Under the pieces are notes generated by a model. It worked only from the letters and a program-made list of their open reading frames with translations. It was not told the DNA's origin and ran no database searches. This document shows positions 1,246 through 56,935 of a DNA stretch of 64,000 nt, in pieces. Source of the stretch: Clostridia bacterium. GTDB taxonomy: Bacteria > Bacillota > Clostridia > CAKSNL01 > HGM11501. The stretch covers positions 792-64,791 of the forward strand of contig CAAFWO010000017.1 of assembly GCA_900766735.1 (NCBI GenBank). Direction: 5' to 3'. The translations under genes were made by a program, and so were the position numbers. Every line of letters begins with the position of its first letter. Position 1 is the stretch's first letter.

Positions 1246-1320
1246 TGGTGACTCGTACCAGATTTGAACTGGTGTTACCGCCGTGAAAGGGCGGTGTCTT
1301 AACCGCTTGACCAACGAGCC
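1246..1320 (-). tRNA. tRNA-Glu (anticodon UUC)
   Basis: The reverse complement reads GGCTCGTTGGTCAAGCGGTTAAGACACCGCCCTTTCACGGCGGTAACACCAGTTCAAATCTGGTACGAGTCACCA. It has a 7-bp acceptor stem and a CTTTCAC anticodon loop, and closely matches Bacillus tRNA-Glu. Confidence 0.9.
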
Positions 1321-1325
1321 GGATA

Positions 1326-1402
1326 TGGTAGCGGCAGGTGGACTTGAACCGCCGACCTAACGGGTATGAACCGTTTGCTCTAGCCAGCTGAGCTATGCCG
1401 CC
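1326..1402 (-). tRNA. tRNA-Met elongator (anticodon CAU)
   Basis: The reverse complement reads GGCGGCATAGCTCAGCTGGCTAGAGCAAACGGTTCATACCCGTTAGGTCGGCGGTTCAAGTCCACCTGCCGCTACCA. The anticodon loop is TTCATAC and the sequence is very close to B. subtilis elongator tRNA-Met. Confidence 0.85.
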
Positions 1403-4169: not shown

Positions 4170-4192
4170 TATTTGCCTCCGATCTCACTGAC

Positions 4193-6127
4193 TCAAATGT
4201 CGAGATTCTGTACATACTGAGCATTTTCCTCAATAAATACTCTTCTCGGCTCAACCTCGTCGCCCATAAGAACGCTGAAAATGTCGTTTGCCCTCTCTGC
4301 GTCCTCCATTGTGACCTTTAAGAGTATTCTGTTCTTGGGATCCATTGTCGTCTCCCAGAGCTCCTCGGGGTTCATCTCACCGAGACCTTTGTATCTGCTG
4401 ATGTCGACCTTTGCTCCTAAGTCGCCGTCCTTTAGTTCCTCGCTGATCTGATCCCTTTCCTCGTCACTGAAGGCAACGCGGGACTTTTTACCTCTCGAAA
4501 GCTTGTAAAGCGGGGGCTTCGCAAGGTAAATGTGCCCGGTCTCTATCAAAGGCGTCATAAATCTGAAGAAGAAGGTCAATAAAAGCGTCTGTATATGCGC
4601 GCCGTCAACATCGGCATCGGCCATAACGATTATCTTGTCGTATCTTAATTTTTCAAGCGTGAAGTTCTCGCCGATTCCCGTGCCGAGCGCCTGTATAACG
4701 GGTGTTAACTTATCGTTTCCGTAAACCTTATCCGCCCGTGCCTTTTCGACGTTTAACATCTTTCCCCAAAGAGGAAGTATCGCCTGATATTTACTGTCTC
4801 GCCCGTTCTTTGCCGAGCCGCCGGCAGAATCACCCTCTACTATGTATATCTCTGTCTTTGTCGGATCTTTAACGATACAGTCTGTAAGCTTTCCGGGAAG
4901 TGAGCTTGAGCCAAGCGGCGTTTTCCTCGACGTTTCCCTTGCTTTTCTCGCCGCTATTCTTGCCTTCGCGGCAAACATCGCCTTTTCAAGTATAGCTTTT
5001 CCGACAATAGGATTTTCCTCCAAAAAGTCGGTAAGCTTTTCCTTAACCATATTTTCGACGAGAGCTCTCATTTCCGAGTTTCCGAGTTTGGTCTTCGTCT
5101 GCCCTTCAAACTGCGGTTCTTCCAATTTAACGGAGATAATAGCGATGAGGCCTTCTCTCACATCGTCGCCGGTCAACTCATCGTCCTGTTTCATGAGTTT
5201 ATATTTTTTTGCATATTCAACCAAAACCTTAGTGAGAGCAGATTTGAATCCGGTCTCATGCGTTCCTCCCTCAGTCGTGGAAATGTTGTTTGCAAAGGAC
5301 TCTATTATTTCGTCATAGCCGGTCGTCCACTGCATGGCAACCTCCGCCATGCTTCCGTCCTTCTTGCCGCTGACATATATAACATCCTCGTTAACGGCTT
5401 CAAGGTCGCTTTTTTTACTGTGCTTTTCTGAAAAAATATAAGAAACGAAATTCTTTATTCCGCCCTCATAGTGAAGAACCTCTTTTTCGGGCGTCTCTTT
5501 TCTCATATCCGTAAAGATTATTCTGACTCCGCCGTTTAAGAATGCCTGCTCTCTTAATCTCTTAAGCAACACACTATAGTCATAAACTGTCTCTTCAAAA
5601 ATTTCATCGTCCGCCCAGAAGGTGATCTCCGTTCCCGTTCTGTCGGTCTTGCCTATCTCGTGGACCTTACCGTCCGGAACACCTCTTTTATAGCTCTGAT
5701 ACCAGATCCTCTCACCGTCCGACACCTTTACCTCAAGTCTTTTTGAAAGCGCGTTAACAACAGATGCTCCAACGCCGTGAAGACCGCCGGACACCTTATA
5801 TCCTCCTCCGCCGAATTTTCCGCCGGCATGAAGAACGGTAAATATAACATCGATCGTCGAAATTCCCATTTTGGGGTGGATCCCGTGCGGAATACCTCTT
5901 CCGTTATCCTTAACTGTAACGGAGTTATCCTCGTTTAAGGTGACCTCTATCTCTGTGCAGTATCCTGCCAGTGCCTCGTCTATCGAGTTATCGACAATTT
6001 CATATACAAGGTGATGAAGGCCCCTTATTGAAGTCGATCCGATATACATACCCGGTCTTTTTCTGACCGCTTCAAGGCCCTCCAAGACCTGTATTTGATT
6101 TTCATCGTAATTATTATTAGCGCTCAT
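4193..6127 (-). CDS. gyrB: DNA gyrase subunit B
   Basis: 644 aa with the GHKL ATPase motifs ([13 protein letters not shown]), TOPRIM motifs and [10 protein letters not shown]. Confidence 0.97.
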
Positions 6128-6392
6128 AATCCAAATCCTTTCTTCCCGACCTGTCGCTCTCTATTCTTTTTAATAACGTCGCCGGAGAAATGGGCGATAC
6201 GTATACTCTGTTTTCCTTATCGAGCACATATGACCTCGGAAGGTCAAATGACGTCGTTATGACTTTTTTTCTTTTTTCCGATTCTTTTAAAAATTCCTTG
6301 GTTATCTTTGAAATACTCGTGTTTTCAATGTCGAATATTCCGATAATATCCTCGCTTCTTAAAAGAAAATCTCCCCCTATATGAAGATACAT
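6117..6392 (-). CDS. remB: DUF370 family protein (YaaB/RemB-like), conserved between recF and gyrB in Firmicutes
   Basis: 91 aa in the conserved position and of the expected size. Overlaps the gyrB start by 11 nt. Confidence 0.65.
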
Positions 6393-6395
6393 TTT

Positions 6396-7502
6396 CTAAT
6401 CCTCTTTTTTTATCTTGCCGTAGTCGACCGTGAAAAAGAACGATTTTTTTCTTTTCCGAAGGCCGCTTGCCCCGGTGCAGGTTATTATTGTCTGCTTTCC
6501 TTTGATTTTTTCGGTCAGATACGACTGCCTTTTTTTATCAAGCTCGCTCATTATATCGTCAAGCAGTAAAACAGGGTAGCTCCCTGTCCTGTCCTTAATG
6601 ATTTCGGTCATCGCAAGCTTTAAACAAATAATAACGGAGCGCTGCTGCCCCTGCGAGCCGAAAAGCTTCACATTCTTTTTGTTTATCAAAAATTCAACGT
6701 CGTCTCTGTGCGGCCCGGTCAGAGCCTGCATTTTTTCGATCTCGGCGTTTTTAAGCCTATCCGTTTTTTCCCTAAAATCCTCTTTTATCTTCTCTACATC
6801 GTTAATATCGCGAAGTGAAACAGAAGGAACATATTTTATCGTGAGCTTTTCCTTCCCGTCCGTAAGCTCCTCCATTTTTTCCTTGGCATACTCTTCAAGC
6901 ATTTTTATAAAGCTTCCGCGATACATAAAAAGTCTCGACCCGTACTCCGTCATTCTCTGGTTCCATATATCTATCATCATGGAGATCTCGCGCGGAGAAC
7001 CTTTTTTTAAGAGTGTGTTTTTCTGCTTTAAGCATTTATTATAGTCTCTTAAAATTTTAACATAGTTCGGTCGAAGAACCGAAATCGAATCGTCTAAAAA
7101 TTCTCTTCTTAATTCCTTTTCGCCCTTTATTATCTCAATTTCCTCCGGGCAGAAAAGAACTGTCTTAAAATATTCGGACAGTAATGAATTTTTAGAGAGA
7201 GGGATCTTATTAAAGCTTATCTCTTTTTTCCCGTCGCACGTTACCTTAAATTCGCCGTTATAGGAATAGTCCTCGTTTATAAAATCCATTCCCAAATAAA
7301 ACGAGTCGCACCCGAATCGGATAAGATCTTTTTCTCCCGCCGGACGATAGCTCTTGCCCGTTGAAAAAAGATAGATAGCCTCAAGCAGATTCGTTTTTCC
7401 CTGGGAGTTTTTTCCTCTTATAACATTAACCTCGGGATTAAAGAATATTTCCTGCTCTTTAAAATTTCTGTAATTTAAAAGCTTAAGCCTTTCAATTCTC
7501 AT
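6396..7502 (-). CDS. recF: DNA replication and repair protein RecF
   Basis: 368 aa. N-terminal Walker A (GKNSQGKTNLLEAI) and the SMC-like signature. Confidence 0.95.
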   Translation of the reverse strand: MRIERLKLLNYRNFKEQEIFFNPEVNVIRGKNSQGKTNLLEAIYLFSTGKSYRPAGEKDLIRFGCDSFYLGMDFINEDYSYNGEFKVTCDGKKEISFNKIPLSKNSLLSEYFKTVLFCPEEIEIIKGEKELRREFLDDSISVLRPNYVKILRDYNKCLKQKNTLLKKGSPREISMMIDIWNQRMTEYGSRLFMYRGSFIKMLEEYAKEKMEELTDGKEKLTIKYVPSVSLRDINDVEKIKEDFREKTDRLKNAEIEKMQALTGPHRDDVEFLINKKNVKLFGSQGQQRSVIICLKLAMTEIIKDRTGSYPVLLLDDIMSELDKKRQSYLTEKIKGKQTIITCTGASGLRKRKKSFFFTVDYGKIKKED

Positions 7503-8601
7503 TTTTTAATCTAACGGGAAGAACCATTTGAATGAAGGAATCGTTATCTATCGGGCGGATGATACAGGGGCTTAAATTTGAATTGAATTCAAGCTTTGCA
7601 ACGTCCGTTTCCGCGGCCTTTAACGCGTCGTGAATATAGCGGTTGTTAAAGCCGATCTCGGTTTCTTCTCCTTCAAAGGGAATCTCCAATGTGTCGACGA
7701 TCTGACCCGTCGCGGTGATGCACTTTATTATGAGCTCTTTTTGAGTAAAGTGAAATCTTATCGGGCTCTTTGTCTCGTCCGCCGCGATGATGGGCTCACA
7801 GCGCTCAACGCTCTCCATCACGCTTGAAACGGGAATCACAACGCTGTAGTTATTGACTGCCGGAATCGTCTTCTCATAATTTAAGTAATTTCCTTCGATA
7901 AGCCTTGAAACGACCTTTGCGTTTTCCGTCTTTATAGAAACATATCTTTCGGTAAGGCCTATATTTACCTTTGAGTCGTCGTCTCTTAATATTTTAACAA
8001 GCTCACCGAGCGTCTTTCCGGGAACGATGAACGAAAAGTCGCCGCTTGAGGTTACTTTTTCTCTTCTTAAAGCAAGGCGGAATCCGTCAACCGAAACGAC
8101 ATTTAAATTATCTCCTTTAACTTCAAAAAGAGAACCGGTCAAAACTATTCTGCTCTCGTTCTGCGACACGGCATAGAGAGTTCTTCTTATCATATTTTTT
8201 AAGGTTCCCTCTTCTATCGAAAATTCATTTTCCTTTTCGATTTCGGGAACCGAAGGAAATTCATCGTCCGACAGACCCAAAATTTTATATTCGATGTTCT
8301 GGCAGGTGATGACAGCGTTTCTGTTTTCGTTCACCTTTAAGGTCACGGTATCGTTGGGAAGCTTTCTCACAATGTCCATAAAGGTTTTTGCGAGTAAAAC
8401 GATTCCTCCCTCTTCATAAACCTGCGCCGGGATGAGGCACTCTATACCGAGATCCATATCGTTTCCGACTATCGTTAAAGTCTCTGCTTCTGCTTTTATG
8501 TATATTCCCTCCAAAATGGGAAGCGAAGCTTTCTGTGAGACCGCTTTTGAAACGATGTTCAAGGTATTTAAAAGTATTTCCTTCTGACACTGAAAAATCA
8601 T
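7492..8601 (-). CDS. dnaN: DNA polymerase III beta subunit (sliding clamp)
   Basis: 369 aa with three-domain clamp similarity. GGAGAA RBS. Confidence 0.95.
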   Translation of the reverse strand: MIFQCQKEILLNTLNIVSKAVSQKASLPILEGIYIKAEAETLTIVGNDMDLGIECLIPAQVYEEGGIVLLAKTFMDIVRKLPNDTVTLKVNENRNAVITCQNIEYKILGLSDDEFPSVPEIEKENEFSIEEGTLKNMIRRTLYAVSQNESRIVLTGSLFEVKGDNLNVVSVDGFRLALRREKVTSSGDFSFIVPGKTLGELVKILRDDDSKVNIGLTERYVSIKTENAKVVSRLIEGNYLNYEKTIPAVNNYSVVIPVSSVMESVERCEPIIAADETKSPIRFHFTQKELIIKCITATGQIVDTLEIPFEGEETEIGFNNRYIHDALKAAETDVAKLEFNSNLSPCIIRPIDNDSFIQMVLPVRLKNEN

Positions 8602-8800
8602 GACGATTCTCCTTTTCCTTTGGATTGATTTTTTTATAAATAATATATATTTAAATTCAGTAATAGTAGTATGGGTGGATTGTGTGAAAAACTAAATATT
8701 ATGCCCTTTTTTCAAGGGCCTATACATATTTTTTTATGATGAAGAAATGTCTAAATAAAAAGAATTTAAATATCCACAGCCTGTTTAAAAGGTGGACTGA
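8602..8800. promoter_or_regulatory. oriC segment between dnaA and dnaN (incC-like): AT-rich putative DNA unwinding element plus a DnaA box
   Basis: 8615-8670 is about 85% AT (ttgatttttttataaataatatatatttaaattcag). aTATCCACA at 8770-8778 matches the DnaA-box consensus at 8 of 9 positions. Confidence 0.55.
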
Positions 8801-10114
8801 TCAGCTGTTTTTTAAGTCAGTCGTTATTTTATCGATTTTTTCTTTTTTTTCATCATCCTCAGAAATAAAGGTCTCTACCTTTTTTATTGCGTGGATAATG
8901 GTGGAATGATCCTTTCCTCCGAAATATTCCCCTATCTTGTTATAAGACAGTTCGGTTAAATTTTTACAAAGGTAGATTGCAATCTGCCTCGGAACGACAA
9001 TATCCTTTGTCTTTCTTTTTGAGGTGATATCCTCCTCTCTTATTCTGAAAAGGGAAGAAACCGATTTAATTATCATCTCCGGAGTGATTATTCTGGAAGA
9101 GGAGGTAGTTCTGTATTTTTTTATAGCTTCCTTTGCCATATCCAAAGTAATTTCTCTGTTAACGAGCCCGGAATAAGCCGAAAGAGTTTTAAAAACTCCT
9201 TCAAGCTCACGTATGTTCATTGTGATATTGTCGGCAATATACATTAAAATTTCCGTGTCTATATTTATATTCTGGTTTTCTGCCTTTTGCTTTAATATAG
9301 CGACTCTCGTTTCATATTCCGGAGGCTGAATATCTCCTAAATATCCCCATCCGAAACGGGATTTTAATCTTTCCGCAAGGTTGGGAATTTCATTGGGAGG
9401 CCGGTCACTTGACAAAACTATTTGCTTTGAATCCTCGAAAAGAGAATTAAAGGTGTTAAAAAATTCCTCTTCCATGGACACCTTGCCGGCTATAAACTGA
9501 ATATCATCGACAAATAAAGCGTCTATCTTTCTGTATTTTTCACGGAATGAGTCCGTGCTTTTTTTTGCGATGCTCTCTATAAGCTCGACAGTGAATGTTT
9601 CAGCAGTGACAAACAGAGTTTTTAAATTAGGACTGTTTTCGTTTATAAAATTTTCCATCGCGTGCATAAGGTGGGTTTTTCCCAAGCCGACTCCTCCCCA
9701 AATGAATAAGGGATTATAAGCTTTACCGGGTGTTTCTGCCGCGCCGAGAGCAAGTGCATGAGCGAACCTGTTTGAATTTCCGACAACAAAATTATCAAAA
9801 GTATATTTTAAATTGTTTTCTTTTTTTGCAAAAGATTTTTTTTCTTCTTCCTCGGTTTTTTCTTTTTCATCTCCGACTGTGACAAAAATTAAGTAGTTTT
9901 TTCCGGATGCTTCCAAAACGGAGTTTATAATGAGATCCTTATAGCGGTTGTCCAGCATGTTTTTTATAATGTCGGTCTTCACCGAAAGATAAATTTTATC
10001 GTCCGTCATTTTATAAGGAACAACGTCTTTTATCCATGTATTGTAGGAAACGTTCGGAATTTCTTCTTTTATGTATTCACATGATTTTGCCCAAATATCC
10101 GATAATAAGGACAA
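8801..10114 (-). CDS. dnaA: Chromosomal replication initiator protein DnaA (likely TTG start 27 nt inside the longest ORF)
   Basis: AAA+ Walker A (GGVGLGKTHL) and the C-terminal DnaA-box-binding HTH. An AAGGGGG RBS lies 8 nt upstream of the in-frame TTG (start 10114). The longest track ORF (to 10141) has no RBS. Confidence 0.93.
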   Translation of the reverse strand: MSLLSDIWAKSCEYIKEEIPNVSYNTWIKDVVPYKMTDDKIYLSVKTDIIKNMLDNRYKDLIINSVLEASGKNYLIFVTVGDEKEKTEEEEKKSFAKKENNLKYTFDNFVVGNSNRFAHALALGAAETPGKAYNPLFIWGGVGLGKTHLMHAMENFINENSPNLKTLFVTAETFTVELIESIAKKSTDSFREKYRKIDALFVDDIQFIAGKVSMEEEFFNTFNSLFEDSKQIVLSSDRPPNEIPNLAERLKSRFGWGYLGDIQPPEYETRVAILKQKAENQNINIDTEILMYIADNITMNIRELEGVFKTLSAYSGLVNREITLDMAKEAIKKYRTTSSSRIITPEMIIKSVSSLFRIREEDITSKRKTKDIVVPRQIAIYLCKNLTELSYNKIGEYFGGKDHSTIIHAIKKVETFISEDDEKKEKIDKITTDLKNS

Positions 10115-10406
10115 TCTTATAACCCCCTTAATTATCCACAATTGTTTATAAAAGATGTTGAAAACTGTGGATAAACCCTTATTTTTATAACAAAAAGGCT
10201 CTGCGGCTGATTTAAGGTTGTGGATAAGTTATCAACCGCTCTTATATTCATATCTCATATATTATAACAAAAAACTTTCCTTTTTACAAGATTAAATTTA
10301 TTTTTTTTGTGAAAATTTTAATTTTTCGGTTGACAAATAAAATTTTAATATATATAATAAAAAAAAGTCTGTAATTTTTTATTTTACTTTTAAGGAGGTG
10401 TTTTTT
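10115..10406. promoter_or_regulatory. oriC segment upstream of dnaA: three perfect DnaA boxes plus the rpmH promoter
   Basis: TTATCCACA at 10132-10140. TGTGGATAA at 10166-10174 and 10219-10227. The rpmH promoter is TTGACA (10330-10335), a 17-nt spacer, then TATAAT (10353-10358). Confidence 0.7.
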
Positions 10407-10541
10407 GTGCTTAGAACATATCAGCCCAACAAGCTTAAGAGAAAAAAAGTGCATGGATTCAGAAGCAGAATGAGCACTAAAAACGGCAGAAAAGTTCTTT
10501 CGAGAAGAAGAAGACAGGGCAGAAGGGTTCTTTCCGCTTAA
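10407..10541 (+). CDS. rpmH: 50S ribosomal protein L34
   Basis: GTG start following an AAGGAGG RBS. Encodes the 44 aa [44 protein letters not shown]. Absent from the ORF track because it is under 60 aa. Confidence 0.9.
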
Positions 10542-10568
10542 TTTTAAGAAGGAGAGATTATCTTTGGC

Positions 10569-10907
10569 ATGAAAAGTACGCTGTCGCTGAAAAGCAATTC
10601 TATTTTTACAAAACTTTATAAAAAGGGGAGCTGTGAGAAGTCCAGAAGCGTGATAATGTATTATCACAAAAACGGACTTCCTTTTTGCCGGATGGGAATA
10701 ACGGTCAGCAAGAAGATCGGTTCCGCTGTCAAAAGGAACAGAGCCAAAAGGCTTATCAGAGAAAGCTACAGATGCTTTGAAAAATACGCCTCGGGGTACG
10801 ATATTGTTTTTGTTGCAAGAACCATAACGCCCGAGGCCGGGTTTTTTGAAGTGAAAAAGGATATGGAAAGGCTGTTTGAAAAAAGTCTTATGAGGTGTGA
10901 AAAGTGA
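10569..10907 (+). CDS. rnpA: Ribonuclease P protein component
   Basis: 112 aa, basic, in the conserved position after rpmH. Confidence 0.9.
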
Positions 10908-11113
10908 AATATGTTTTTCTTTTTTTTATCAGACTTTATAGAAAATATATTTCTCCTTTGTCAAAGCCTCATTGCAGATTTTACCCCACATGTTCAGCCT
11001 ATGCCTATGAAGCAATAAAAAAATACGGTGCGTTAAAGGGCGGTTTTTTAACCGTTAAAAGAATTCTGAAATGTCACCCTTTTAATGCGGGGGGATATGA
11101 TCCCGTTCCGTAA
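10904..11113 (+). CDS. yidD: Membrane protein insertion efficiency factor YidD
   Basis: 69 aa with the PTCSxYxxEA motif. Overlaps rnpA by 4 nt. Confidence 0.85.
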
Positions 11114-11125
11114 AAAAATGAGGGA

Positions 11126-12031
11126 GTGATTAAAATAATAGATTTTTTCGCTAATATACTCAGCTATATCATTAACCCCATTTACAATCTGGTCGGAAAT
11201 TACGGTGTTGCCGTAATTTTGTTTACTGTTATAGTTAAAGTATTACTTGTCCCGCTCGGTGTTAAGCAGCAAAAGACGATGGTCAAGACCAAGCAGATCA
11301 AGCCCGAGCTTGACAAAATCCAGTCTAAATACAAAAACGATAAAGAAAAGCTCAACGAAGAAACGATGAAGCTTTATCAGAAGTATGACATTAACCCGAT
11401 GGGCGGATGTCTTCCTCTTCTTGTTCAGTTTCCGATTCTTTTGGGTCTTTACAGGGTTATTCAGCACCCCATTAACTGGATTTTAAGAAGTAATCCGGTT
11501 GATGCCATAGAAAAGATAATTACCGAAGGAAAGATGACAGAGTCCGCGGCGGCCGAAGCTCTTCGTTCGCTCTGCGCGTCGGCAGACAAAATTGCCGGCT
11601 TAAACAGTGTGAGCGAGCTTGTCGGAGCGTTTGAAAAGGATGCGTCGCTCGGCGTTACGCAGATAGACATAGCTTCAAAATTCCATCTCGTTAATTTCGA
11701 TTTTCTGGGATTGGATCTGTCGGCAACGCCCTCTATCAGCGAGCTTTCGTGGCTCTGGATAATTCCCATATTTGCAACGGGCGCGGCATTTTTCTCAAAC
11801 TGGGTATCTTCAAAGATCAACCCGATAACGGGAGATCAGGCGCAGACTATGAAGAGCATGAACCTTATGATGCCTTTGATGACGCTGTTTTTCACGTTCA
11901 CTCTTTCGGCAGGTATCGGCGTTTACTGGTTCTTCAGCACGATGTTATCCGTTGCACAGATGTATCTTTTGACAAAGTATTTTGAAAAGAAATATCCTTC
12001 CGTTGCCAATACGGGGAAAGGAAAAAAATAA
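11126..12031 (+). CDS. yidC: Membrane protein insertase YidC/Oxa1 family (start codon uncertain, GTG/ATA region)
   Basis: 301 aa with YidC transmembrane core motifs (GGCLPLLVQFPILLGLY). Confidence 0.88.
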   Translation: MIKIIDFFANILSYIINPIYNLVGNYGVAVILFTVIVKVLLVPLGVKQQKTMVKTKQIKPELDKIQSKYKNDKEKLNEETMKLYQKYDINPMGGCLPLLVQFPILLGLYRVIQHPINWILRSNPVDAIEKIITEGKMTESAAAEALRSLCASADKIAGLNSVSELVGAFEKDASLGVTQIDIASKFHLVNFDFLGLDLSATPSISELSWLWIIPIFATGAAFFSNWVSSKINPITGDQAQTMKSMNLMMPLMTLFFTFTLSAGIGVYWFFSTMLSVAQMYLLTKYFEKKYPSVANTGKGKK

Positions 12032-12687
12032 TGAGATTTGCAGAAAAAAAGGCAAAAACCGTTGACGAAGCGGTAAATCAGGCATTAGCTGAGCTTGGCG
12101 CTTCGAAAGACGAGGTTGATATTGAAATAATTGAAGAGACAAAGGGTCTTTTCGGAATCCTCGGAAGCAAGGAAGTCAAGGTCAGAGTCACATTAAGGGA
12201 AAGAGAAGAAGTGACTCGCGCCAAGGAGTTTATTAAAAATGTGACGGATAAGTTAGGAATGAACATCGAGCAGGAGGCCTCTTATAACGAAGAGGACAAG
12301 CTCTTAAAGATTGAGTTAAAGGGCGAAGAACTTGGCCTTTTGATCGGAAGAAGAGGAGAAACTCTTGACTCTATCCAGTACCTTACAAACATTTTTGTAA
12401 ACAAGAAGTCGGACGATTATGTCAAAGTCACGATCGACGCTGAAAATTACAGGGCGAGAAGAGAAGAAGCTTTGGTATCGCTGGCGAAGAGAACGGCTTC
12501 GAAGGCTGTTAAATACAGAAAAAATATGATAATTGAGCCGAAAAATCCTTACGAGAGAAGAATAATTCACGAGGCTCTTCAGGATTATCCCGAGGTAACG
12601 ACCTATTCAGTCGGAGAGGATCCCAACAGAAAGGTTATTGTGGCCTATAAGGGAATGGCCGGCGGCTACAGAAAAAACCAGGAATAA
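12031..12687 (+). CDS. jag: Jag/KhpB RNA-binding protein (KH + R3H domains)
   Basis: 218 aa in the conserved position after yidC. Confidence 0.85.
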   Translation: MRFAEKKAKTVDEAVNQALAELGASKDEVDIEIIEETKGLFGILGSKEVKVRVTLREREEVTRAKEFIKNVTDKLGMNIEQEASYNEEDKLLKIELKGEELGLLIGRRGETLDSIQYLTNIFVNKKSDDYVKVTIDAENYRARREEALVSLAKRTASKAVKYRKNMIIEPKNPYERRIIHEALQDYPEVTTYSVGEDPNRKVIVAYKGMAGGYRKNQE

Positions 12688-12736
12688 TTTAAAGAAGCGG
12701 CTTTTAAAGCCGCTTCTTATTTTAAGGGAGAAAAAA

Positions 12737-14086
12737 ATGTCTGAAACAATTGCGGCGATAAGCACAGCGCCGGGAAAAGGCGGAATTTCAATAATCAGAA
12801 TAAGCGGCGACAATGCTATTTTAACGGCGGACAAGGTATTTTGCGGCAAAAAAAGACTTGCCGATGCGAAAACGCACACCATCCACTACGGAAAAATCGT
12901 TTCCGGCGGCAAGGTGATTGACGAGTGCCTCTGCTCGGTAATGAGAGCGCCCTTAAGCTATACCACGGAGGACGTTGTCGAGATAAACGTCCACGGCGGA
13001 GTGTATTCGGCCGAGATGACGCTTAAAGCTGTCTTGGGTGCAGGAGCAAGGCCGGCAAAGCCCGGCGAATTTACGCTTCGCGCCTTTATGAACGGAAGGA
13101 TTGACCTTTCGGAGGCCGAGGCCGTCGGAGATATTATAGATTCAAAGACGGCGCTTGCACAGTCAACGGCCGTCAACCAGCTCGAAGGAAAATTAAAAGA
13201 GCCCGTCAACAATTTAAGAAAAAGGTTAGTTGAGATTCTGGGCTATATCACCGTCTCGTCCGACTTTCCGGACGAAGACCCGGACTCACTTTCCGGGATC
13301 GACATCAAAAAAGAAATTGAGAATATAAAAAAAGAAACTGAAATTATCTTAAATAATGCCGACAGGGGTATTATCATAAGAGATGGCGCTCTTTGCGCCA
13401 TCTGCGGCAAGCCAAACGTCGGAAAATCGTCGCTCTTAAACGCACTGACGGGAACTGACCGCGCGATAGTGACTGAGATCGAGGGCACGACGCGCGACGT
13501 TATCGAGGAATACATCAACATAAAGGGCGTTCCGGTGAAGCTGGCGGACACTGCCGGGATCCGCGAAAAAGCGGACGAGGTGGAAAAGATCGGCGTCAAA
13601 AAGGCGAAGGAGTATATCGATAAGGCCGACCTTTGCATTTTTGTGGCCGACAATTCAAGAAAATTTGAAAAAGAGGACGCGGAGATATTCTCGCTCCTTA
13701 AAAATAAAAAGGTGATAACAGTATTAAATAAGTCGGAGCTTGAAAATGAGTGCACTCTCCCCCCTTATATCTTAAATCCGGTTAAAATTTCGGTAAGAAC
13801 GGGAGAAGGCATAGCCGAGCTTACCGACAGGATATATGATGAGCTTATGGGAGAAGAGTTTTCGTCCGACTCGGTTTTGATCACGAACGGAAGACATAAA
13901 GAGGCGCTCGCCTTTGCCGATTCCGAGATCGGGAAGGCACTCACCGAGCTTGAAAGCGGCGCGCCGGTCGACCTTTGCTCGATATATTTGGAGAGCGCCG
14001 TGTCGCACCTTGGCGAAATCACGGGAATGACCGTATCTGACGAGGTCATAGGCGAGGTATTTTCAAAGTTTTGCATAGGAAAATAG
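12737..14086 (+). CDS. mnmE: tRNA modification GTPase MnmE (start at MSETIAA with AAGGGAG RBS; the longer track ORF is an upstream extension)
   Basis: G1-G4 GTPase motifs (GKPNVGKSSLLN, DTAG, NKSE) and the C-terminal CIGK. Confidence 0.93.
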   Translation: MSETIAAISTAPGKGGISIIRISGDNAILTADKVFCGKKRLADAKTHTIHYGKIVSGGKVIDECLCSVMRAPLSYTTEDVVEINVHGGVYSAEMTLKAVLGAGARPAKPGEFTLRAFMNGRIDLSEAEAVGDIIDSKTALAQSTAVNQLEGKLKEPVNNLRKRLVEILGYITVSSDFPDEDPDSLSGIDIKKEIENIKKETEIILNNADRGIIIRDGALCAICGKPNVGKSSLLNALTGTDRAIVTEIEGTTRDVIEEYINIKGVPVKLADTAGIREKADEVEKIGVKKAKEYIDKADLCIFVADNSRKFEKEDAEIFSLLKNKKVITVLNKSELENECTLPPYILNPVKISVRTGEGIAELTDRIYDELMGEEFSSDSVLITNGRHKEALAFADSEIGKALTELESGAPVDLCSIYLESAVSHLGEITGMTVSDEVIGEVFSKFCIGK

Positions 14087-31903: not shown

Positions 31904-32062
31904 TATGTGCGTAAAGGCTCCCTCATCAGATGGAGGCATTTGACCACCCCACCCACGCTAATGCACCCATCTCTTTGTAACAATTCACTCACCCGTCCGC
32001 GGAACACTTTGCCGCTCTAATGTTACAAAACGGTGACAAATGAAGAAAAATCGCAAAAAAGC

Positions 32063-35299: not shown

Positions 35300-35580
35300 G
35301 TGCGCTTTCAAAGGCTCACCCGGAGTTTGGTTAAGGCGCAATAAGGCTCCCCCTGGGGGAGCTGTCAAAACCGCAGGGTTTGACTGAGGGATATGGGATT
35401 TGCACCCACTCCGATAGTACACCGTAGGGCACGGCGGTTTCCGACGTGCCGACCGTTTTGCACACACCTCGGTTCGTCGTAAACGCCGAACCCTACGATT
35501 TGCACCCACTCCACTGATGCACCCGTAGGGGATGGCGTCCCCGACATCCCGATAATTTTAAGAACAAAAAAGGGGAACAA
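35300..35580. repeat. Cluster of modular intergenic palindromic repeat elements (family shared with 31905-31960 and 40320-41100)
   Basis: gatttgcacccactcc occurs twice. A 29-nt core gtagggcacggcggtttccgacgtgccga is identical to 40923-40951. A ~45-bp unit gagtttggttaaggcgcaataaggctccccctgggggagctg is homologous to 40631-40677 and 40789-40832. Confidence 0.65.
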
Positions 35581-35642: not shown

Positions 35643-35718
<76 letters not shown>

Positions 35719-39286: not shown

Positions 39287-40282
39287 ATGTACAAAGCAAG
39301 TGAAAAACGATATGCAAAAATGCAATATGCCCACTGTGGAAAGAGCGGCTTGAAATTGCCGAAAGTTTCGCTCGGATTGTGGCATAATTTCGGAAATACC
39401 GCTTCTTTTGATAATATGACGGCGCTGTGCACAACGGCGTTTGACCACGGAATAACGCATTTCGACCTCGCGAATAACTACGGGCCCGAACCCGGCAGAG
39501 CGGAGATTAATTTCGGTAAGATATTGAAGGAAAATTTCCTCCCCTACCGTGACGAGATGATAATTAGCACCAAGGCCGGCTATGATATGTGGGAAGGCCC
39601 TTACGGAAACTGGGGCAGCAGAAAATATCTGATCGCGAGCCTTGACCAGAGCTTGAAGAGAATGGGCATCGATTATGTGGACATTTTCTACCACCACAGA
39701 CCCGATCCGGAGACTCCGCTTGAGGAAACGATGGGTGCGCTGGACTATGCGGTGAAGAGCGGCAAGGCACTCTATGCCGGGTTGTCCAACTACAACGGCG
39801 AGATGATGGAGCGTGCGGCGGAGATTCTGGAGCGTTTGAACTGCCCGTTCGTAATCAATCAGAACCGCTATTCGATTTTTGACCGCACGATCGAGCAGAA
39901 CGGATTGAAGAAGACTGCCGAGAGATGCGGAAAGGGTATAATCGCATTCAGCCCTCTTGCTCAGGGCACGCTGACCGACCGCTATCTTAATGGCATTCCG
40001 GAGGACAGCAGAATAAAGACGGACGGCAGATTCTTAAAAGCGTCGATCCTGACGGAAGAGAGACTGTCGGAGATTAAACAGCTTAACGATGTTGCGCGCC
40101 GCCGCGGCCAGACTCTGGCTGAGATGGCTCTTGCCTGGGTGCTTAAGGATAACGCGGTGACGAGCGTGCTTATCGGCGCGTCCAAACCGGAGCAGATTCT
40201 GGATAATATTAAGGCGATCAATAACAACAACTTTACGGAGGCGGAGCTCCGCGAGATCGATGCGATCTGCCAGATAGTATAA
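39287..40282 (+). CDS. Aldo/keto reductase (L-glyceraldehyde 3-phosphate reductase YghZ/Gpr-like)
   Basis: 331 aa with the AKR catalytic tetrad region (DLANNYG..., HRPD). Confidence 0.88.
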   Translation: MYKASEKRYAKMQYAHCGKSGLKLPKVSLGLWHNFGNTASFDNMTALCTTAFDHGITHFDLANNYGPEPGRAEINFGKILKENFLPYRDEMIISTKAGYDMWEGPYGNWGSRKYLIASLDQSLKRMGIDYVDIFYHHRPDPETPLEETMGALDYAVKSGKALYAGLSNYNGEMMERAAEILERLNCPFVINQNRYSIFDRTIEQNGLKKTAERCGKGIIAFSPLAQGTLTDRYLNGIPEDSRIKTDGRFLKASILTEERLSEIKQLNDVARRRGQTLAEMALAWVLKDNAVTSVLIGASKPEQILDNIKAINNNNFTEAELREIDAICQIV

Positions 40283-40284
40283 TA

Positions 40285-40318
40285 AAAACCCCCGTGATTT
40301 TCATCACGGGGGTTTTAG
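40285..40318 (+). terminator. Rho-independent terminator
   Basis: cccccgtga ttttca tcacggggg followed by TTTT. Confidence 0.8.
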
Positions 40319-40319
40319 A

Positions 40320-41100
40320 ACAACGCACTATGCATAGTGTCGTAACACGGATAGGCAGTGTAATGACATGGTACACAGTTTTGCATTAAAATGCGTGCAA
40401 AATAACCGTGTGCTGGTCTCCAAAGTATCACGGGTTTCGCACATTCACTCCACTCATGCACCTGTAGGACGCTCACGGTTCCCGACGTGCCGAGTGTGCT
40501 TTTCGGGTTGAATGCACCGTAGGGTCGATTCTCAGAATCGACCGGTTAATAATTTGTTCACCTTTGGCATATCCTCCCTCCGCCTTCGGCTCCACCCTCC
40601 TTTACACAAGGAGGGCTTTAAACTTCCGCAAAGGTTTGGAGAGAACATTTAAAGGCTCCCTTGCCCAAAGGGAGCTGGGTTTTGCATAGCAAAACTCTGA
40701 GGGGTAGTTATAAGGCCGTCTCTCCCTCCGTCAAAACCTGACGGTGTTGCCACCTCACTCATCAGATGGAGGCATTTAAGCATCCGCCGAGGTTTGGATA
40801 GTGCATTTAAAGGCTTCCTCTAAGGAGGCTCCGCCGGTAGGCGGTGGTGAGGGGGCGATGTGGGCAACGGGTCGTCGAGGACGCCAACCTCTACGGGTTA
40901 GCGGTCACATATTTGGTGCATTGTAGGGCACGGCGGTTTCCGACGTGCCGAATGCGAACTTAAAATTCTCTCCCTCCGTCTCGGCTGCGCCGAGCCAGCT
41001 CCCTCGTCAGAGGGAGCCCTTTGCGCTTGCTTTTTCAGTGCACCGCAGGGGATGGCGTTCCCGAAATTCCGAAACCTATAAAAACTCGTATTTTTTGACA
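40320..41100. repeat. ~800-bp gene-free region densely packed with modular hairpin repeats (same family as 31905-31960 and 35300-35580)
   Basis: No credible ORF. At least four repeat modules recur. These are TGCACC-GTAGGG + hairpin (x4), the ggtttggaKag...aaaggctYcc-loop-ggagc unit (x2), TCTCCCTCCG + hairpin (x3) and ctcatcagatggaggcattt (x1). Confidence 0.65.
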
Positions 41101-41236
41101 TTTGCCTGAGCTAAGTGCGCATCAAAATAACAAAAAAATAAAGAATTAAACTTATTTAAAAGCAAAAAATTAAAGGCATATTGCAAACACTGATGATATA
41201 ATGTAGACAGTTCACAAAAATGACGGGGGAATGAAT

Positions 41237-42235
41237 ATGGAGAGAAACCAGAATCCGGCGAAGCACACACTTGACCTGATCAGGGCGACAGAGCCCGCGA
41301 TGCGCTACCGCGGCGGCGACTTTGAAAAATGGCAGAAGGACGCGCGCGAAAAGCTCATTGAGCTTTTGAGAATGCCTGCTCCGGCGAAGGACGACGCGCT
41401 TTTGATCGAGTATGAAAAGGACGAAGAAACCTATCACGAGACGAGGTTTACCTTCAGGAGCGAGGAGGGCTATTTCGTGCCGACGCACCTTTTGGTGCCG
41501 AAAAACGCGAAGGGCAAGGTGCCTGTCGCGATCTGCCTTCAGGGACATTCGCGCGGAATGCACATATCGCTCGGACGGCCGAAATACCCTGGCGACGAGG
41601 CGGACATTTCCGGCGTAGACCGTGACTTTGCCGTCGGCGCGCTTGAAAAAGGCTTTGCCGCGCTTGCGATCGAACAGCGCGGAATGGGCGAATGCGGCGG
41701 AACGGAACGCGGCCCGGCCTGCCAGCTTCATACGATGGCGAACCTTCTGATCGGCAGAACGACCATCGGGGAGCGCGTGTTGGACATCTCACGCGCGATC
41801 GACGTTTTGATAAAGCATTTTGACGCGATCGACCCCGACAATATAATCTGCGTCGGCAACTCCGGCGGCGGAACGGCGACTTTTTATGCCGCGTGCGTTG
41901 ATGAGCGCATTAAAACCGCAATCCCGAGCTGTGCATTCGCAAGCTATGACGATTCGATCGCCGCGATGCTCCACTGCACCTGCAACTTTATCCCGAACAT
42001 CAGAAACTACTTTGACATGGGCGACCTTTCGGGGCTTATCGCGCCGAGAAACCTCATAATCGTGTCCGGCAAGGAAGACCCTATCTTTCCCATCGATTCG
42101 GCAAAGAAATGCTTTGAGATCACAAAAGAGCTCTATTCGCACACAAACGGCACGGCCGTTCACGTTATCGGGCCGGAGGGCCACCGCTTTTACAAAAAAG
42201 CCGCGTGGGAGGCTTACGACAAAATTACAAAATGA
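41237..42235 (+). CDS. Alpha/beta hydrolase fold esterase (GNSGGG nucleophile elbow; acetylxylan-esterase/dienelactone-hydrolase-like)
   Basis: The G-x-S-x-G motif in an a/b-hydrolase context. Preceded by the extended -10 TGaTATAAT. Confidence 0.72.
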   Translation: MERNQNPAKHTLDLIRATEPAMRYRGGDFEKWQKDAREKLIELLRMPAPAKDDALLIEYEKDEETYHETRFTFRSEEGYFVPTHLLVPKNAKGKVPVAICLQGHSRGMHISLGRPKYPGDEADISGVDRDFAVGALEKGFAALAIEQRGMGECGGTERGPACQLHTMANLLIGRTTIGERVLDISRAIDVLIKHFDAIDPDNIICVGNSGGGTATFYAACVDERIKTAIPSCAFASYDDSIAAMLHCTCNFIPNIRNYFDMGDLSGLIAPRNLIIVSGKEDPIFPIDSAKKCFEITKELYSHTNGTAVHVIGPEGHRFYKKAAWEAYDKITK

Positions 42236-56766: not shown

Positions 56767-56774
56767 ATTAAAAA

Positions 56775-56935
56775 AAGAGTAGGGCGAGGTGAAATTCCTC
56801 ACCGGCGGTAATGAGCGTTTATGCTACGAGTCCGAGAGCGAAAGCTGATTTGGGTCAGATTCCCGAACCGACGGTAAAGTCCGGATGAAGAACTCACTTT
56901 TATGAGAGGCGCCTTTTTAAGGGCGCTTTTTTTGT
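56775..56935 (+). ncRNA. FMN riboswitch (RFN element) with terminator expression platform
   Basis: Conserved RFN segments GGGCGAGGTGAAATTCCTCACCGGCGGTAA, AGTCCGAGAGCGAAAG and CCGACGGTAAAGTCCGGATGAAGA. Followed by the hairpin aggcgcc/gggcgct and T7. Confidence 0.85.

Follow-up and report, generated by a model that had tools for sequence, protein, structure and literature searches.

A probable BIME-like mosaic of two hairpin repeat families in an intergenic block of gut Clostridia

Introduction

REP/RAYT systems are textbook features of Proteobacteria. BOX, RUP and SPRITE of Streptococcus pneumoniae and the Correia elements of Neisseria are short, modular, hairpin-forming intergenic repeats that occur in variable combinations; the BOX modules boxA-B-C keep a fixed order, and Correia and RUP elements typically have a terminal inverted repeat and a target duplication. 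REPs lie in clusters, often inverted, downstream of genes (PMC3733652). Subclass 2.4 of tnpA_REP, described as abundant in Cyanobacteria and Bacteroidetes (Quentin et al. 2018, PMC6006769), has in-frame REPs inside the gene, with variable insertion, and canonical long REPs whose stem starts from three G-C pairs.

The locus examined here belongs to a 64,000-nucleotide stretch of DNA from a Clostridia bacterium; this whole stretch is called the window below. An initial annotation had described positions 40320-41100 as a gene-free block of about 800 bp, built of hairpin repeats and representing either a mosaic of the BOX, BIME or Correia kind from a novel family or a large structured ncRNA. We consider it probable (roughly 0.7) that the block is a BIME-like mosaic of small non-coding intergenic hairpin repeats from two families, modules a and b, that circulate in gut Clostridia and phages. 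The mosaic reading is supported by modules in both orientations and by their recurrence in the window, in other genomes and in phage contigs; the annotation had made its proposal depend on copies beyond this site, and these are present. Comparison with BIMEs is supported because one of the modules is a GTAG-tagged REP of the RAYT type, the building unit of E. coli BIMEs.

The block shares with BOX, RUP, SPRITE and Correia elements the variable combination of modular hairpin repeats, but it appears to have no sequence similarity to them, and no terminal inverted repeat with target duplication was seen. It resembles the REPs and BIMEs of Enterobacteria and Pseudomonas in its imperfect hairpin, which is G/C-based and has GTAG at the 5' foot. 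As with REPs, BIMEs and REPINs, the repeats of the window are extragenic, often clustered and in part inverted, and appear to make up mosaic blocks with linker motifs. A single-copy Y1/HUH transposase is associated with them, as in REP/RAYT systems, and its closest structure is E. coli TnpA_REP (4ER8). Four features set the repeats apart from known REPs and BIMEs: the host phylum, Bacillota/Clostridia, is not covered in the REP surveys PMC3733652 and PMC5581495; the inner loop, GCGTCCTCGA, is fixed while the stems around it vary widely; a second, unrelated two-hairpin module is part of the blocks; and units of 82 nt and 159 nt were found in direct tandem instead of strictly alternating REP pairs.

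Results and Discussion

Composition of the block

As annotated, the block lies between the intrinsic terminator of the upstream aldo/keto reductase (AKR) gene, which forms its left edge and stands outside the repeat family, and the promoter of a hydrolase gene that starts at 41231; the -35/-10-like TTGACA...TATAAT of this gene is placed downstream of the block. The absence of a credible ORF was also borne out, the longest in the ORF list having at most 67 aa. About 13 hairpin modules make up the block (Table 1). The a and b units have the order a+ a+ b- b+ b- b+ a- a+ b- a+, with no strict REP alternation. REPs stand beside other conserved motifs, and both orientations are represented. Folded as DNA, the block reached -150.7 kcal/mol, compared with -112.3 ± 6.7 for shuffles (z = -5.73). 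Larger units are repeated within it: 40592-40661 and 40750-40819 form a 70-nt direct repeat (74% identical, spacing 158), and there are inverted b-/b+ pairs of about 130 nt each. A search by MITE criteria found no flanking direct duplication and no empty site around the inverted b pairs. The copies at 40464, 40720, 40808 and 41045 are decayed or degenerate.

Table 1. Repeat modules and adjoining features in the window. R1 is the covariance model of module b.
Feature	Position	Strand	Description
Fragmentary copy	31905..31975	+	helix-1 part of module b and leader part of module a; downstream of a terminator; 87.5% identity over 32 nt to 40754-40785
Module b, outside block	35341..35394	+	R1 46.6 bits, E = 1.1e-12; helix 2 GTCAAAACC...GGTTTGAC
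Module a, outside block	35424-35452	+	
Module a, outside block	35468-35495	-	
Module a, outside block	35525-35552	+	
AKR terminator hairpin	40285..40316	+	perfect 14-nt inverted repeat, then T-run
Module a, degenerate	40464..40493	+	GTAGGACGCTCACG-GTTCCCGA-CGTGCCGA; leader CACTCCACTCATGCACC (40446-40462) on its 5' side, also at 35508-35524
Module a variant	40519..40543	+	GTAG and 9-bp hairpin GGTCGATTC-TCA-GAATCGACC; TGCACC-GTAGGG head as elsewhere, stem and loop different
Module b, variant family	40572..40616	-	helix 1 CCCTCCTT/AAGGAGGG; helix 2 GCC-GAA-GGC; tail GGAGGGAGGAT; 87% identical to L336 1109-1159
Linker 'c'	40617..40649	.	CTTCCGCAAAGGTTTGGAGAGAACATTTAAA; between inverted b pair; second copy 40778-40807
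Module b	40650..40707	+	GGCTCCCTT-GCCC-AAAGGGAGCTG, hairpin GGTTTTGC-ATA-GCAAAAC, TCTGAGGGGTAG; R1 45.0 bits, E = 3.8e-12
Module b, degenerate	40720..40777	-	CTCCCTCCGTCAAAACCTGACGG...CCTCACTCATCAGATGGAGG; weak R1 match, 7.5 bits; alignable to 40967-41022 and 31918-31949
Module b, decayed	40808..40857	+	GGCTTCCTCTAAGGAGGC, hairpin CGCC-GGTA-GGCG, GTGAGGGGG; R1 18.1 bits, E = 0.0017
Module a, inverted	40870..40894	-	reverse complement GTAGAGGTTG-GCGTCCTCGA-CGACC
Module a	40923..40951	+	GTAG-GGCACG-GCGGTTTCCGA-CGTGCC-GA
Module b	40968..41022	-	reverse complement GGCTCCCTC-TGAC-GAGGGAGCTG, hairpin GCTCGGC-GCA-GCCGAGA, CGGAGGGAGAG; R1 46.2 bits, E = 1.5e-12
Module a, degenerate	41045..41072	+	GCAG-GGGATG-GCGTTCCCGA-AATTCC-GA; decayed copy of the 35525-35552 type

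All features named in the initial annotation exist at or near the coordinates it gave. Its four TGCACC-GTAGGG units with hairpin are the forward module a copies of the block, of which the first reads TGTAGGA (tag GTAGGA) and the last GCAG; the inverted copy at 40870 is an addition. A unit of about 45 bp that it had picked out was confirmed and belongs to the longer 70-nt direct repeat. CTCCCTCCG occurs in three exact copies (40574, 40722 and 40970) and nowhere else in the 64 kb. One assignment did not hold: TCTCCCTCCG with a small hairpin, listed as a module of its own, belongs to the GGCTCCC...GGGAGC module, of which it forms one end in reverse complement. The pattern GGCTCCC-N(2-10)-GGGAGC gave 3 matches, compared with 0 in 100 shuffles. 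BLAST confirmed the proposed kinship with 35300-35580 and 31905-31960, and the 29-mer said to be shared by 35424-35452 and 40923-40951 is 100% identical. The modules are present in 3 intergenic sites of the window, in both orientations, and none lies within a gene.

Module a is a GTAG-tagged REP

Module a consists of GTAG, a G/C-based stem with compensatory changes and the conserved inner loop. Across 19 copies from 7 sources, 99.3% of stem cells were paired, compared with 23-54% in slid controls, and the pairing score was reached by 0 of 500 shuffles. Eight stem variants were seen, and at the three middle pairs of the stem 20 changes are double-sided. GTAG adjoins the stem at 35424, 35492(-), 35525, 40519, 40889(-) and 40923, in keeping with the REP pattern of GT[AG]G at 0-2 nt on the 5' side of the hairpin. 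All 8 module a units in the 64 kb are intergenic, and they fall into two clusters in which some neighbours are inverted. Module a is a canonical GTAG-tagged REP, the RAYT-associated type; it is a further case of REPs already known and no novel class. The annotation's proposal of a novel family accordingly fails for module a, a known kind of REP (PMC6006769), and appears to hold for module b, which is found neither in Rfam nor in the searchable literature.

Searches with short strings were of limited yield. The exact 27-mer of the commonest REP matched only 3 metagenome contigs. The degenerate pattern CACTCCNNTNATGCACCN{0,1}GTAGG gave 0 matches in GTDB genome contigs and was probably too strict for the species representative; a degenerate module a pattern was too loose against viral contigs, where 119 of the 120 matches listed were due to chance.

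A RAYT-like gene carries module a

In four related Clostridia loci (L323, L330, L333 and L334), the REP GTAGGGGACGGCGTCCTCGACGTCCC occurs twice, inverted, inside a gene of 165-186 aa, and further copies lie beside the gene. The protein has HUH (PNHIH) and Tyr (YHDHIIR) motifs, both invariant. It matched the NCBIfam REP-associated tyrosine transposase NF047646 at E = 1.6e-18 with 67 bits, below the curated cutoff of 80, and PF01797 with 20.4 bits, below the threshold of 23; because both scores fall under the curated thresholds, we regard it as a divergent relative and not an equivalog. In a PDB profile search the best match was 4ER8 (E = 1.7e-6), and ISDra2 TnpA gave 4e-4. The family numbers 5599 proteins at E <= 1e-10. 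Unlike insertion sequences, the gene is low-copy per contig (1-2 contigs for most clusters, as many as 8 for a few) and is sited among housekeeping genes; its neighbours include ctsR-mcsB-clpC, comEC and an MmeI-type restriction-modification gene.

Both REPs within the gene are fixed, with hardly any variation. One lies N-terminal to the HUH motif and the other between the HUH and Tyr motifs, and they encode VGDGVLDVP and GTSRTPSPT. Among 120 homologues, two stem-encoding positions showed 13 residue pairings, all of them reverse-complement codon pairs. Gut Clostridia thus appear to hold a large RAYT-like family in which REP hairpins within the coding sequence restrict the allowed amino-acid pairs. 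The family is like subclass 2.4 and RAYT group 4 (Bertels et al. 2017, PMC5581495) in having GTAG-GGG...CCC and in-gene REPs, one of them between HUH and Tyr. It differs from subclass 2.4 in that both in-gene REPs are fixed and show compensatory change at the amino-acid level; the likeness is one of features and makes the family a candidate member of subclass 2.4.

Several REPs of the window lead to these and other loci. That at about 35525-35552 is identical to a REP inside the L323 RAYT-like gene, the loop of the inverted REP at 40870 is identical to the RAYT-gene REP loop, and a 34-mer of the REP at 40923 also occurs in the plsX-acpP spacer of another organism. By the established mode of REP spread, module a would be moved in trans on single-stranded DNA by a single-copy Y1/HUH REP-associated tyrosine transposase. 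The enzyme would recognise the GTAG tag and the folded hairpin, then cut and rejoin there, and such recognition would select hairpins with a variable stem and a constant tag and inner loop. No RAYT gene was found in the 64-kb window by tblastn.

Module b is a two-hairpin unit with a mirror-repeat tail

Module b has the architecture GGCTCCC-loop-GGGAGCTG-variable hairpin-CTGAGGG. Its first hairpin is conserved and of pyrimidine/purine composition, its second is hypervariable and has GNA loops, and a purine tail follows. Covariance model R1 matched copies in the window at E of about 1e-12, and RNAalifold recovered both helices with compensatory changes. Helix 2 of the copy at 35341 is nearly the same as that of a Faecalibacterium prausnitzii locus (L255). 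In strains L003 and L005, helix 2 of the copy at 40572 is swapped for GGTTTTTAT-GAA-ATAAAAACC with the GAA loop unchanged. Module b had no Rfam match and was not found in the searchable literature; literature on Faecalibacterium and Clostridia repeats, and searches with exact DNA and peptide strings, likewise returned nothing. It looks undescribed so far.

Module b also resembles IS200/IS605-derived palindrome-associated elements (PATEs) and CGTC-tagged REPs (Di Nocera 2013), which have a subterminal hairpin and a short conserved tag: CCGTC stands at the foot of helix 2 in copies of the window (40578, 40727 and 40975). The foot in most phage copies is CAGTC, not CGTC, and module b differs from PATEs and CGTC-tagged REPs in its second conserved hairpin and its mirror-repeat tail. 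An unsystematic search of neighbourhoods revealed neither a TnpA nor a TnpB gene beside a module b copy. Module b is missing from 3 of the 4 RAYT loci and may therefore not depend on the RAYT-like enzyme. Integron attC sites were dropped as candidates for the repeats for want of GTTRRRY core sites, CRISPR because period and architecture are wrong, and group II introns, retron RNAs and tRNA-derived elements because their defining motifs are lacking.

In 85 of 97 distinct copies the 3' tail of module b mirrors the helix-1 purine strand instead of complementing it; shuffled tails do so in 28 copies on average and in 44 at most. The tail tracks helix 1 across differing helix-2 backgrounds; it obeys the rule in the copy at 40968, and a second helix-1 family (AAGGAGGG; window 40572-40616 and L336) keeps it too. 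Such a mirror tail is compatible with a triplex. On this footing module b could be a new class of single-stranded DNA element, in which the purine tail would clamp helix 1 in an intramolecular triplex as a possible recognition signal; we regard this as conceivable, with the odds against it. The proposed triplex would be of the purine-motif type (G.G-C, A.A-T, T.A-T), with the tail on the pyrimidine-purine hairpin and the GNA-looped hypervariable helix 2 as connecting arm. The fold might be recognised by a single-strand-specific enzyme that would spread module b through gut Clostridia and phages. The mirror tail thus offers a testable hypothesis of a triplex-forming mobile DNA element.

Distribution in strains, relatives and phages

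The block is 93-100% identical among 10 strains of the species; because it is nearly invariant, there is no sign of recent transposition at the block. The sister-species locus is not a clean empty site: modules a and b take up only about 270 nt there, in a different order and not colinear with the block, although the promoter-proximal 110 nt are colinear. A scan of genome contigs with the AKR protein gave a best match of 77-78% identity, with no synteny and no orthologous loci; the Lachnospiraceae loci obtained from it are without the modules, and L323 was among its loci. The closest named GyrB matches, at 84-85% identity, belong to MAGs labelled Clostridia, Ruminococcaceae or Monoglobales.

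These data bear on the alternative that the block is one large structured ncRNA, as the annotation had also suggested, or that it belongs to the hydrolase gene as a long, structured 5' leader, with the hairpins as domains of the RNA. The excess folding over shuffles, the conservation within the species and the position directly upstream of the hydrolase promoter region would all suit such a molecule. It is nonetheless very improbable. At the gathering threshold, Rfam 15 gave no relevant match across the window and none at all in the block; with the limit relaxed to E <= 10, the block showed sub-threshold noise only, the highest-scoring of which covers the AKR terminator. Modules stand in both orientations inside the block and are dispersed over unrelated genomic and phage contexts; the module set of the sister species is shorter and reordered though its promoter region is colinear; and covariation and conservation are confined to individual small hairpins. 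The block is moreover preceded by the AKR terminator and followed by the hydrolase promoter.

Beyond the species, modules a and b are common in related gut bacteria and their phages and appear to have gone undescribed there. Module b was also found in Faecalibacterium. By inspection it is present with full architecture in most of the 120 gut viral contigs listed, from a total of at least 120, and a stricter pattern that requires the tail gave at least 109 distinct copies among the viral matches listed. Module b occurs with module a in composites of about 159 nt and also alone, above all in phages; locus L058 has composite a+b tandem arrays of 159 nt, comparable to the 158-nt spacing in the block.

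A decayed relic, that is, a locus-specific spacer left by old duplications with no active family behind it, would account for the degenerate units, for a block static across 10 strains and for a window without a transposase. We give this little probability. A REP of 29-34 nt recurs unchanged at two sites of the window and between plsX and acpP of another organism, a second REP matches that of L323 exactly, the wholesale replacement of helix 2 in L003 and L005 spared the GAA loop, and phage contigs contain hundreds of well-formed copies. Under the favoured BIME-like mosaic, the 800-bp block would have grown locally by duplication and inversion of units, as the 158-nt duplicate and the inverted b pairs suggest, and several copies would have decayed after this growth.

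The phage copies also raise the question of host function, since the modules could be not selfish DNA but selected elements (terminators, insulators or protectors of mRNA 3' or 5' ends) copied through ordinary duplication. Module b in phages occupies the gap from a stop codon to the following ribosome-binding site and favours one orientation. Of 109 copies, 31 have a ribosome-binding site with start codon at most 45 nt from the GGGAGCC end, compared with 9 of 109 for the other end. A short T-run comes after some of the copies, and one terminator-like site was called at 41008-41023. E. coli REPs stabilise upstream mRNA (discussed in PMC3733652). Selected host elements are nevertheless unlikely as an explanation of the block: most copies have no T-run, and termination has no need of 6-13 units, stacked in both orientations, where a perfect terminator already precedes them. 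In phage copies the strand with stable GNA triloops and purine tail is antisense to the genes, and the transposase gene linked with module a speaks for mobility. In a BIME-like mosaic, any termination, insulation or mRNA-end protection for neighbouring genes would be a by-product.

Modules a and b both build long gene-free chromosomal blocks and are placed between genes of many gut phages, and they could serve as markers of phage-host linkage. Such repeat blocks are a probable source of spurious 'hypothetical proteins'. We suspect them as a cause of broken contigs in assemblies of gut metagenomes as well; contigs of 1-2 kb carry many of the RAYT-like genes.

Two structured modules in the block

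The block at 40320-41100 held no credible ORF, as initially annotated; the longest inside it reaches at most 67 aa. All repeats listed in the initial annotation were present. The TGCACC-GTAGGG-hairpin units were confirmed, with an additional inverted copy at 40870-40894; CTCCCTCCG occurs in three exact copies in the block and nowhere else in the 64 kb; block sequence recurs at 35300-35580 and 31905-31960; and the 29-mer at 35424 is identical to that at 40923. The reported unit of ~45 nt exists but stands within a longer 70-nt direct repeat (40592-40661 and 40750-40819, spacing 158). Repeat content is far above chance: GGCTCCC-N(2-10)-GGGAGC gave three matches compared to none in shuffles, and the block folded as single-stranded DNA reached -150.7 kcal/mol compared to -112.3 ± 6.7 for shuffles (z = -5.7).

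All modules can be assigned to two structured units, a and b, and to linkers; along the block the units run a+ a+ b- b+ b- b+ a- a+ b- a+. In module a, GTAG directly precedes a hairpin with a GG/CC stem base, three variable middle pairs and a conserved inner part, G-CG-(T/C-rich loop)-CG-A; examples are GTAG-GGCACG-GCGGTTTCCGA-CGTGCC-GA and GTAG-GGGATG-GCGTCCCCGA-CATCCC-GA. Module b has two hairpins, GGCTCCCXY-loop-Y'X'GGGAGC-T-[helix 2]-T-GAGrGpq, and a covariance model built from 71 copies found it both within and outside the block. The "TCTCCCTCCG + hairpin" element does exist; rather than a separate module, it is the opposite strand of module b. Two (b- linker b+) units make up a 158-nt duplication.

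At its left edge the block has two more short palindromes, 40326-40339 (CACTATGCATAGTG) and 40379-40405 (TTTTGCA-N10-TGCAAAA), that fit neither module and have no other copies in the window. The repeat cluster at 35.3-35.6 kb has an SLH-protein terminator on one side and a tRNA gene on the other; the features at 35646-35718 (-), 1249-1402 (-) and 56771-56901 (+) are tRNA genes and an FMN riboswitch.

Coordinates of the block's neighbours, module b copies and related loci
Feature	Sequence	Positions	Strand	Remark
Chromosomal origin region	window	1659-14086		gyrA, gyrB, recF, dnaN, dnaA (-); then yidC, jag, mnmE (+)
Aldo/keto reductase gene	window	39287-40282	+	left neighbour of block
Terminator hairpin, perfect	window	40285-40316		ends aldo/keto reductase gene
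Alpha/beta-hydrolase gene	window	41231-42235	+	right neighbour of block
Module b	window	35341-35394	+	covariance model, E ~1e-12
Module b	window	40650-40707	+	covariance model, E ~1e-12
Module b	window	40968-41022	-	covariance model, E ~1e-12
Module b, decayed	window	40808-40857	+	covariance model
Module b, decayed	window	40720-40777	-	covariance model
Module b variant	window	40572-40616	-	different helix 1
RAYT-like gene	L323	13795-14316	-	two inverted in-ORF REPs
RAYT-like gene	L330	10001-10513		two inverted in-ORF REPs
RAYT-like gene	L333	10001-10519		two inverted in-ORF REPs
RAYT-like gene	L334	10001-10561		two inverted in-ORF REPs
plsX-acpP inverted REP pair	L342	300-420		one arm identical over 34 nt to window 40920-40953
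plsX-acpP inverted REP pair	L343	3270-3390		one arm identical over 34 nt to window 40920-40953

Module a and a RAYT-like gene

Judged by sequence, the features of module a are the defining marks of REPs associated with RAYTs (REP-associated tyrosine transposases, TnpA_REP). When 19 REP units, taken from the window and from six further sources, were aligned, 99.3% of cells paired and 20 changes were double-sided, a level matched by none of 500 shuffles. Five module a units were found in a Clostridia MAG, L323, which also encodes a 174-aa protein whose coding sequence holds two of these units, inverted. The window REP at 35525-35550 equals the REP within this gene base for base. The protein carries an HUH motif (PNHIH) and a tyrosine motif (YHDHIIR); it matched the NCBIfam model "REP-associated tyrosine transposase" with E = 1.6e-18 (67 bits, below the cutoff of 80) and Pfam Y1_Tnp weakly. 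For the family profile, the best solved relative was E. coli TnpA_REP (4ER8, E = 1.7e-6), followed by ISDra2 TnpA.

The family comprises 5599 proteins at E <= 1e-10, low-copy per contig, annotated solely as "transposase" or "hypothetical protein" and originating from Clostridia, Ruminococcaceae or Oscillospiraceae. Their gene neighbours are housekeeping genes. In all four loci checked as DNA, GTAGGGGACGGCGTCCTCGACGTCCC codes for the near-invariant peptide VGDGVLDVP and its reverse complement for GTSRTPSPT. Among 120 homologues, the residues of the paired stem codons formed 13 combinations (D-V, T-C, T-G, D-I, T-R, A-G, N-V, G-A, S-R, V-D, T-S, L-E and A-C); all 13 correspond to reverse-complement codon pairs, so the REP hairpin inside the ORF is under selection. 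Spacers flanking the genes hold more REP copies that keep the loop but differ in their stems, among them at least four tandem 82-nt units that precede the L334 gene. A small gene overlaps or abuts the transposase gene start in L330 and L333 (57 aa and 81 aa, respectively); the 81-aa product of L333 matched HTH_26/HTH_3.

TnpA_REP subclass 2.4, equivalent to RAYT group 4 (PMC5581495), combines a stem base of three G-C pairs with in-frame REPs inside the tnpA_REP gene (PMC6006769); module a and the L323-type gene share both traits. A survey of GTAG/CGTC REPs leaves Firmicutes and Clostridia unmentioned (PMC3733652), and Bertels et al. mention Clostridia for group 1 only, which is not REP-rich (PMC5581495).

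The 34-nt REP of window 40920-40953 has an identical copy, with an inverted partner, in the plsX-acpP spacer of two metagenome contigs (L342 and L343), an arrangement like a REPIN. The flanks have no match to the window, and the contigs are probably from another organism.

Module b in phages and other genomes

At least 120 viral contigs, many apparently from human-gut samples, matched the helix-1 pattern, and by inspection most matches listed had the complete module b architecture (hairpin plus CTGAG(A/G)GG tail). With the tail made obligatory, a stricter pattern gave at least 109 distinct copies. RNAalifold recovered both helices, with compensatory change in 7 of 11 pairs. Helix 2 is hypervariable (73 different sequences in 97 distinct elements), and its usual end on the b+ strand is a C-GNA-G triloop (GAA 15, GCA 14, GTA 7, CGCA 9).

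The 3' tail co-varies with helix 1 as the mirror image, not the complement, of its purine strand: G stands opposite G, and A opposite A or T. Both variable positions followed this rule in 85/97 elements; with tails shuffled among elements, 27.8 did so on average and 44 at most (2000 trials). Where the same helix-2 sequence occurred with different helix-1 classes, the tail went with helix 1. The rule also held in a second helix-1 family (CCCTCCTT/AAGGAGGG; window 40572-40616 and L336), with the tail GGGAGGAT(TTT). Under established triplex rules, this would be the exact sequence requirement for an intramolecular purine-motif triplex in which a pyrimidine strand, a loop, a purine strand, a linker and the third strand follow one another.

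Single phage units sit downstream of a stop codon and ahead of the next ribosome-binding site, and their sense strand reads CCCTCAG...GGGAGCC. Among the matches listed, a ribosome-binding site and start codon lay within 45 nt of the GGGAGCC end in 31/109, compared to 9/109 at the opposite end. In viral contig L058, a + b composite units of 159 nt, arrayed in tandem and inverted, take up gaps of 600-800 bp separating structural genes, a design shared with the block. Several viral contigs (L011, L015, L025, L038, L060 and relatives) carry module b apparently in frame within a conserved phage ORF (...RMRELYARQQID-[b]-GKPKYGSQK...), which would be an intragenic REP-like insertion.

Among named genomes, Faecalibacterium prausnitzii (L255) and L323 carry module b, and the L255 helix 2 is nearly identical to that at window 35356-35390. 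Module b was missing from ~75 loci, most of them of Lachnospiraceae, and from all but one of the four RAYT loci, so its tie to the RAYT-like gene is not strict.

Origin and present state of the block

The initial annotation had offered a novel mosaic repeat family or a large structured ncRNA. The evidence favours a BIME-like mosaic built from REP-type repeats, in line with the mosaic option, and does not support a large structured RNA. A secondary function, in termination or in protecting mRNA ends, may exist. TnpA_REP acts by a known mechanism and, together with the gene-repeat association in relatives, this suggests that module a was mobilised, as single-stranded DNA, by a RAYT-like enzyme. 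The block would have grown by insertion and by local duplication or inversion of units; it is now largely static and partly decayed.

The host is an uncultured human-gut member of the Clostridia, whose closest named GyrB matches (84-85% identity) are MAGs of Clostridia, Ruminococcaceae and Monoglobales. The replication origin region lies ~30 kb left of the block, and an AT-rich 0.9-kb gap (~10.2-11.1 kb, GC 0.34), with yidC following it, coincides with the GC-skew minimum. With forks moving rightward from the origin, the + strand would be the lagging-strand template. Six of eight REPs carry GTAG on this strand, a number too small to weigh, in agreement with the single-strand specificity of Y1 enzymes.

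The block is present, with 93-100% identity, in ten strains of the species. A 12-nt insertion after 40714 sets apart the divergent strains L003 and L005, in which one helix 2 (window 40582-40592) is also replaced wholesale, GCC-TTC-GGC becoming GGTTTTTAT-TTC-ATAAAAACC. The new hairpin is unrelated and longer, and the GAA loop is kept on the b+ strand. This polymorphism hints that helix 2 changes through replacement, not point mutation. In a sister species the hydrolase is 86% identical and only ~270 nt of repeats lie upstream: one b-, one variant b+ and one a-, non-colinear with the window block. The last 110 nt before the hydrolase gene are colinear (71%). Downstream of the hydrolase-Dabb genes (~42.6 kb), strains L002, L009 and L010 carry an integrated mobilisable element in place of the window-strain genes, encoding an HTH regulator, MobC, a relaxase, an IstB-like ATPase and a serine recombinase.
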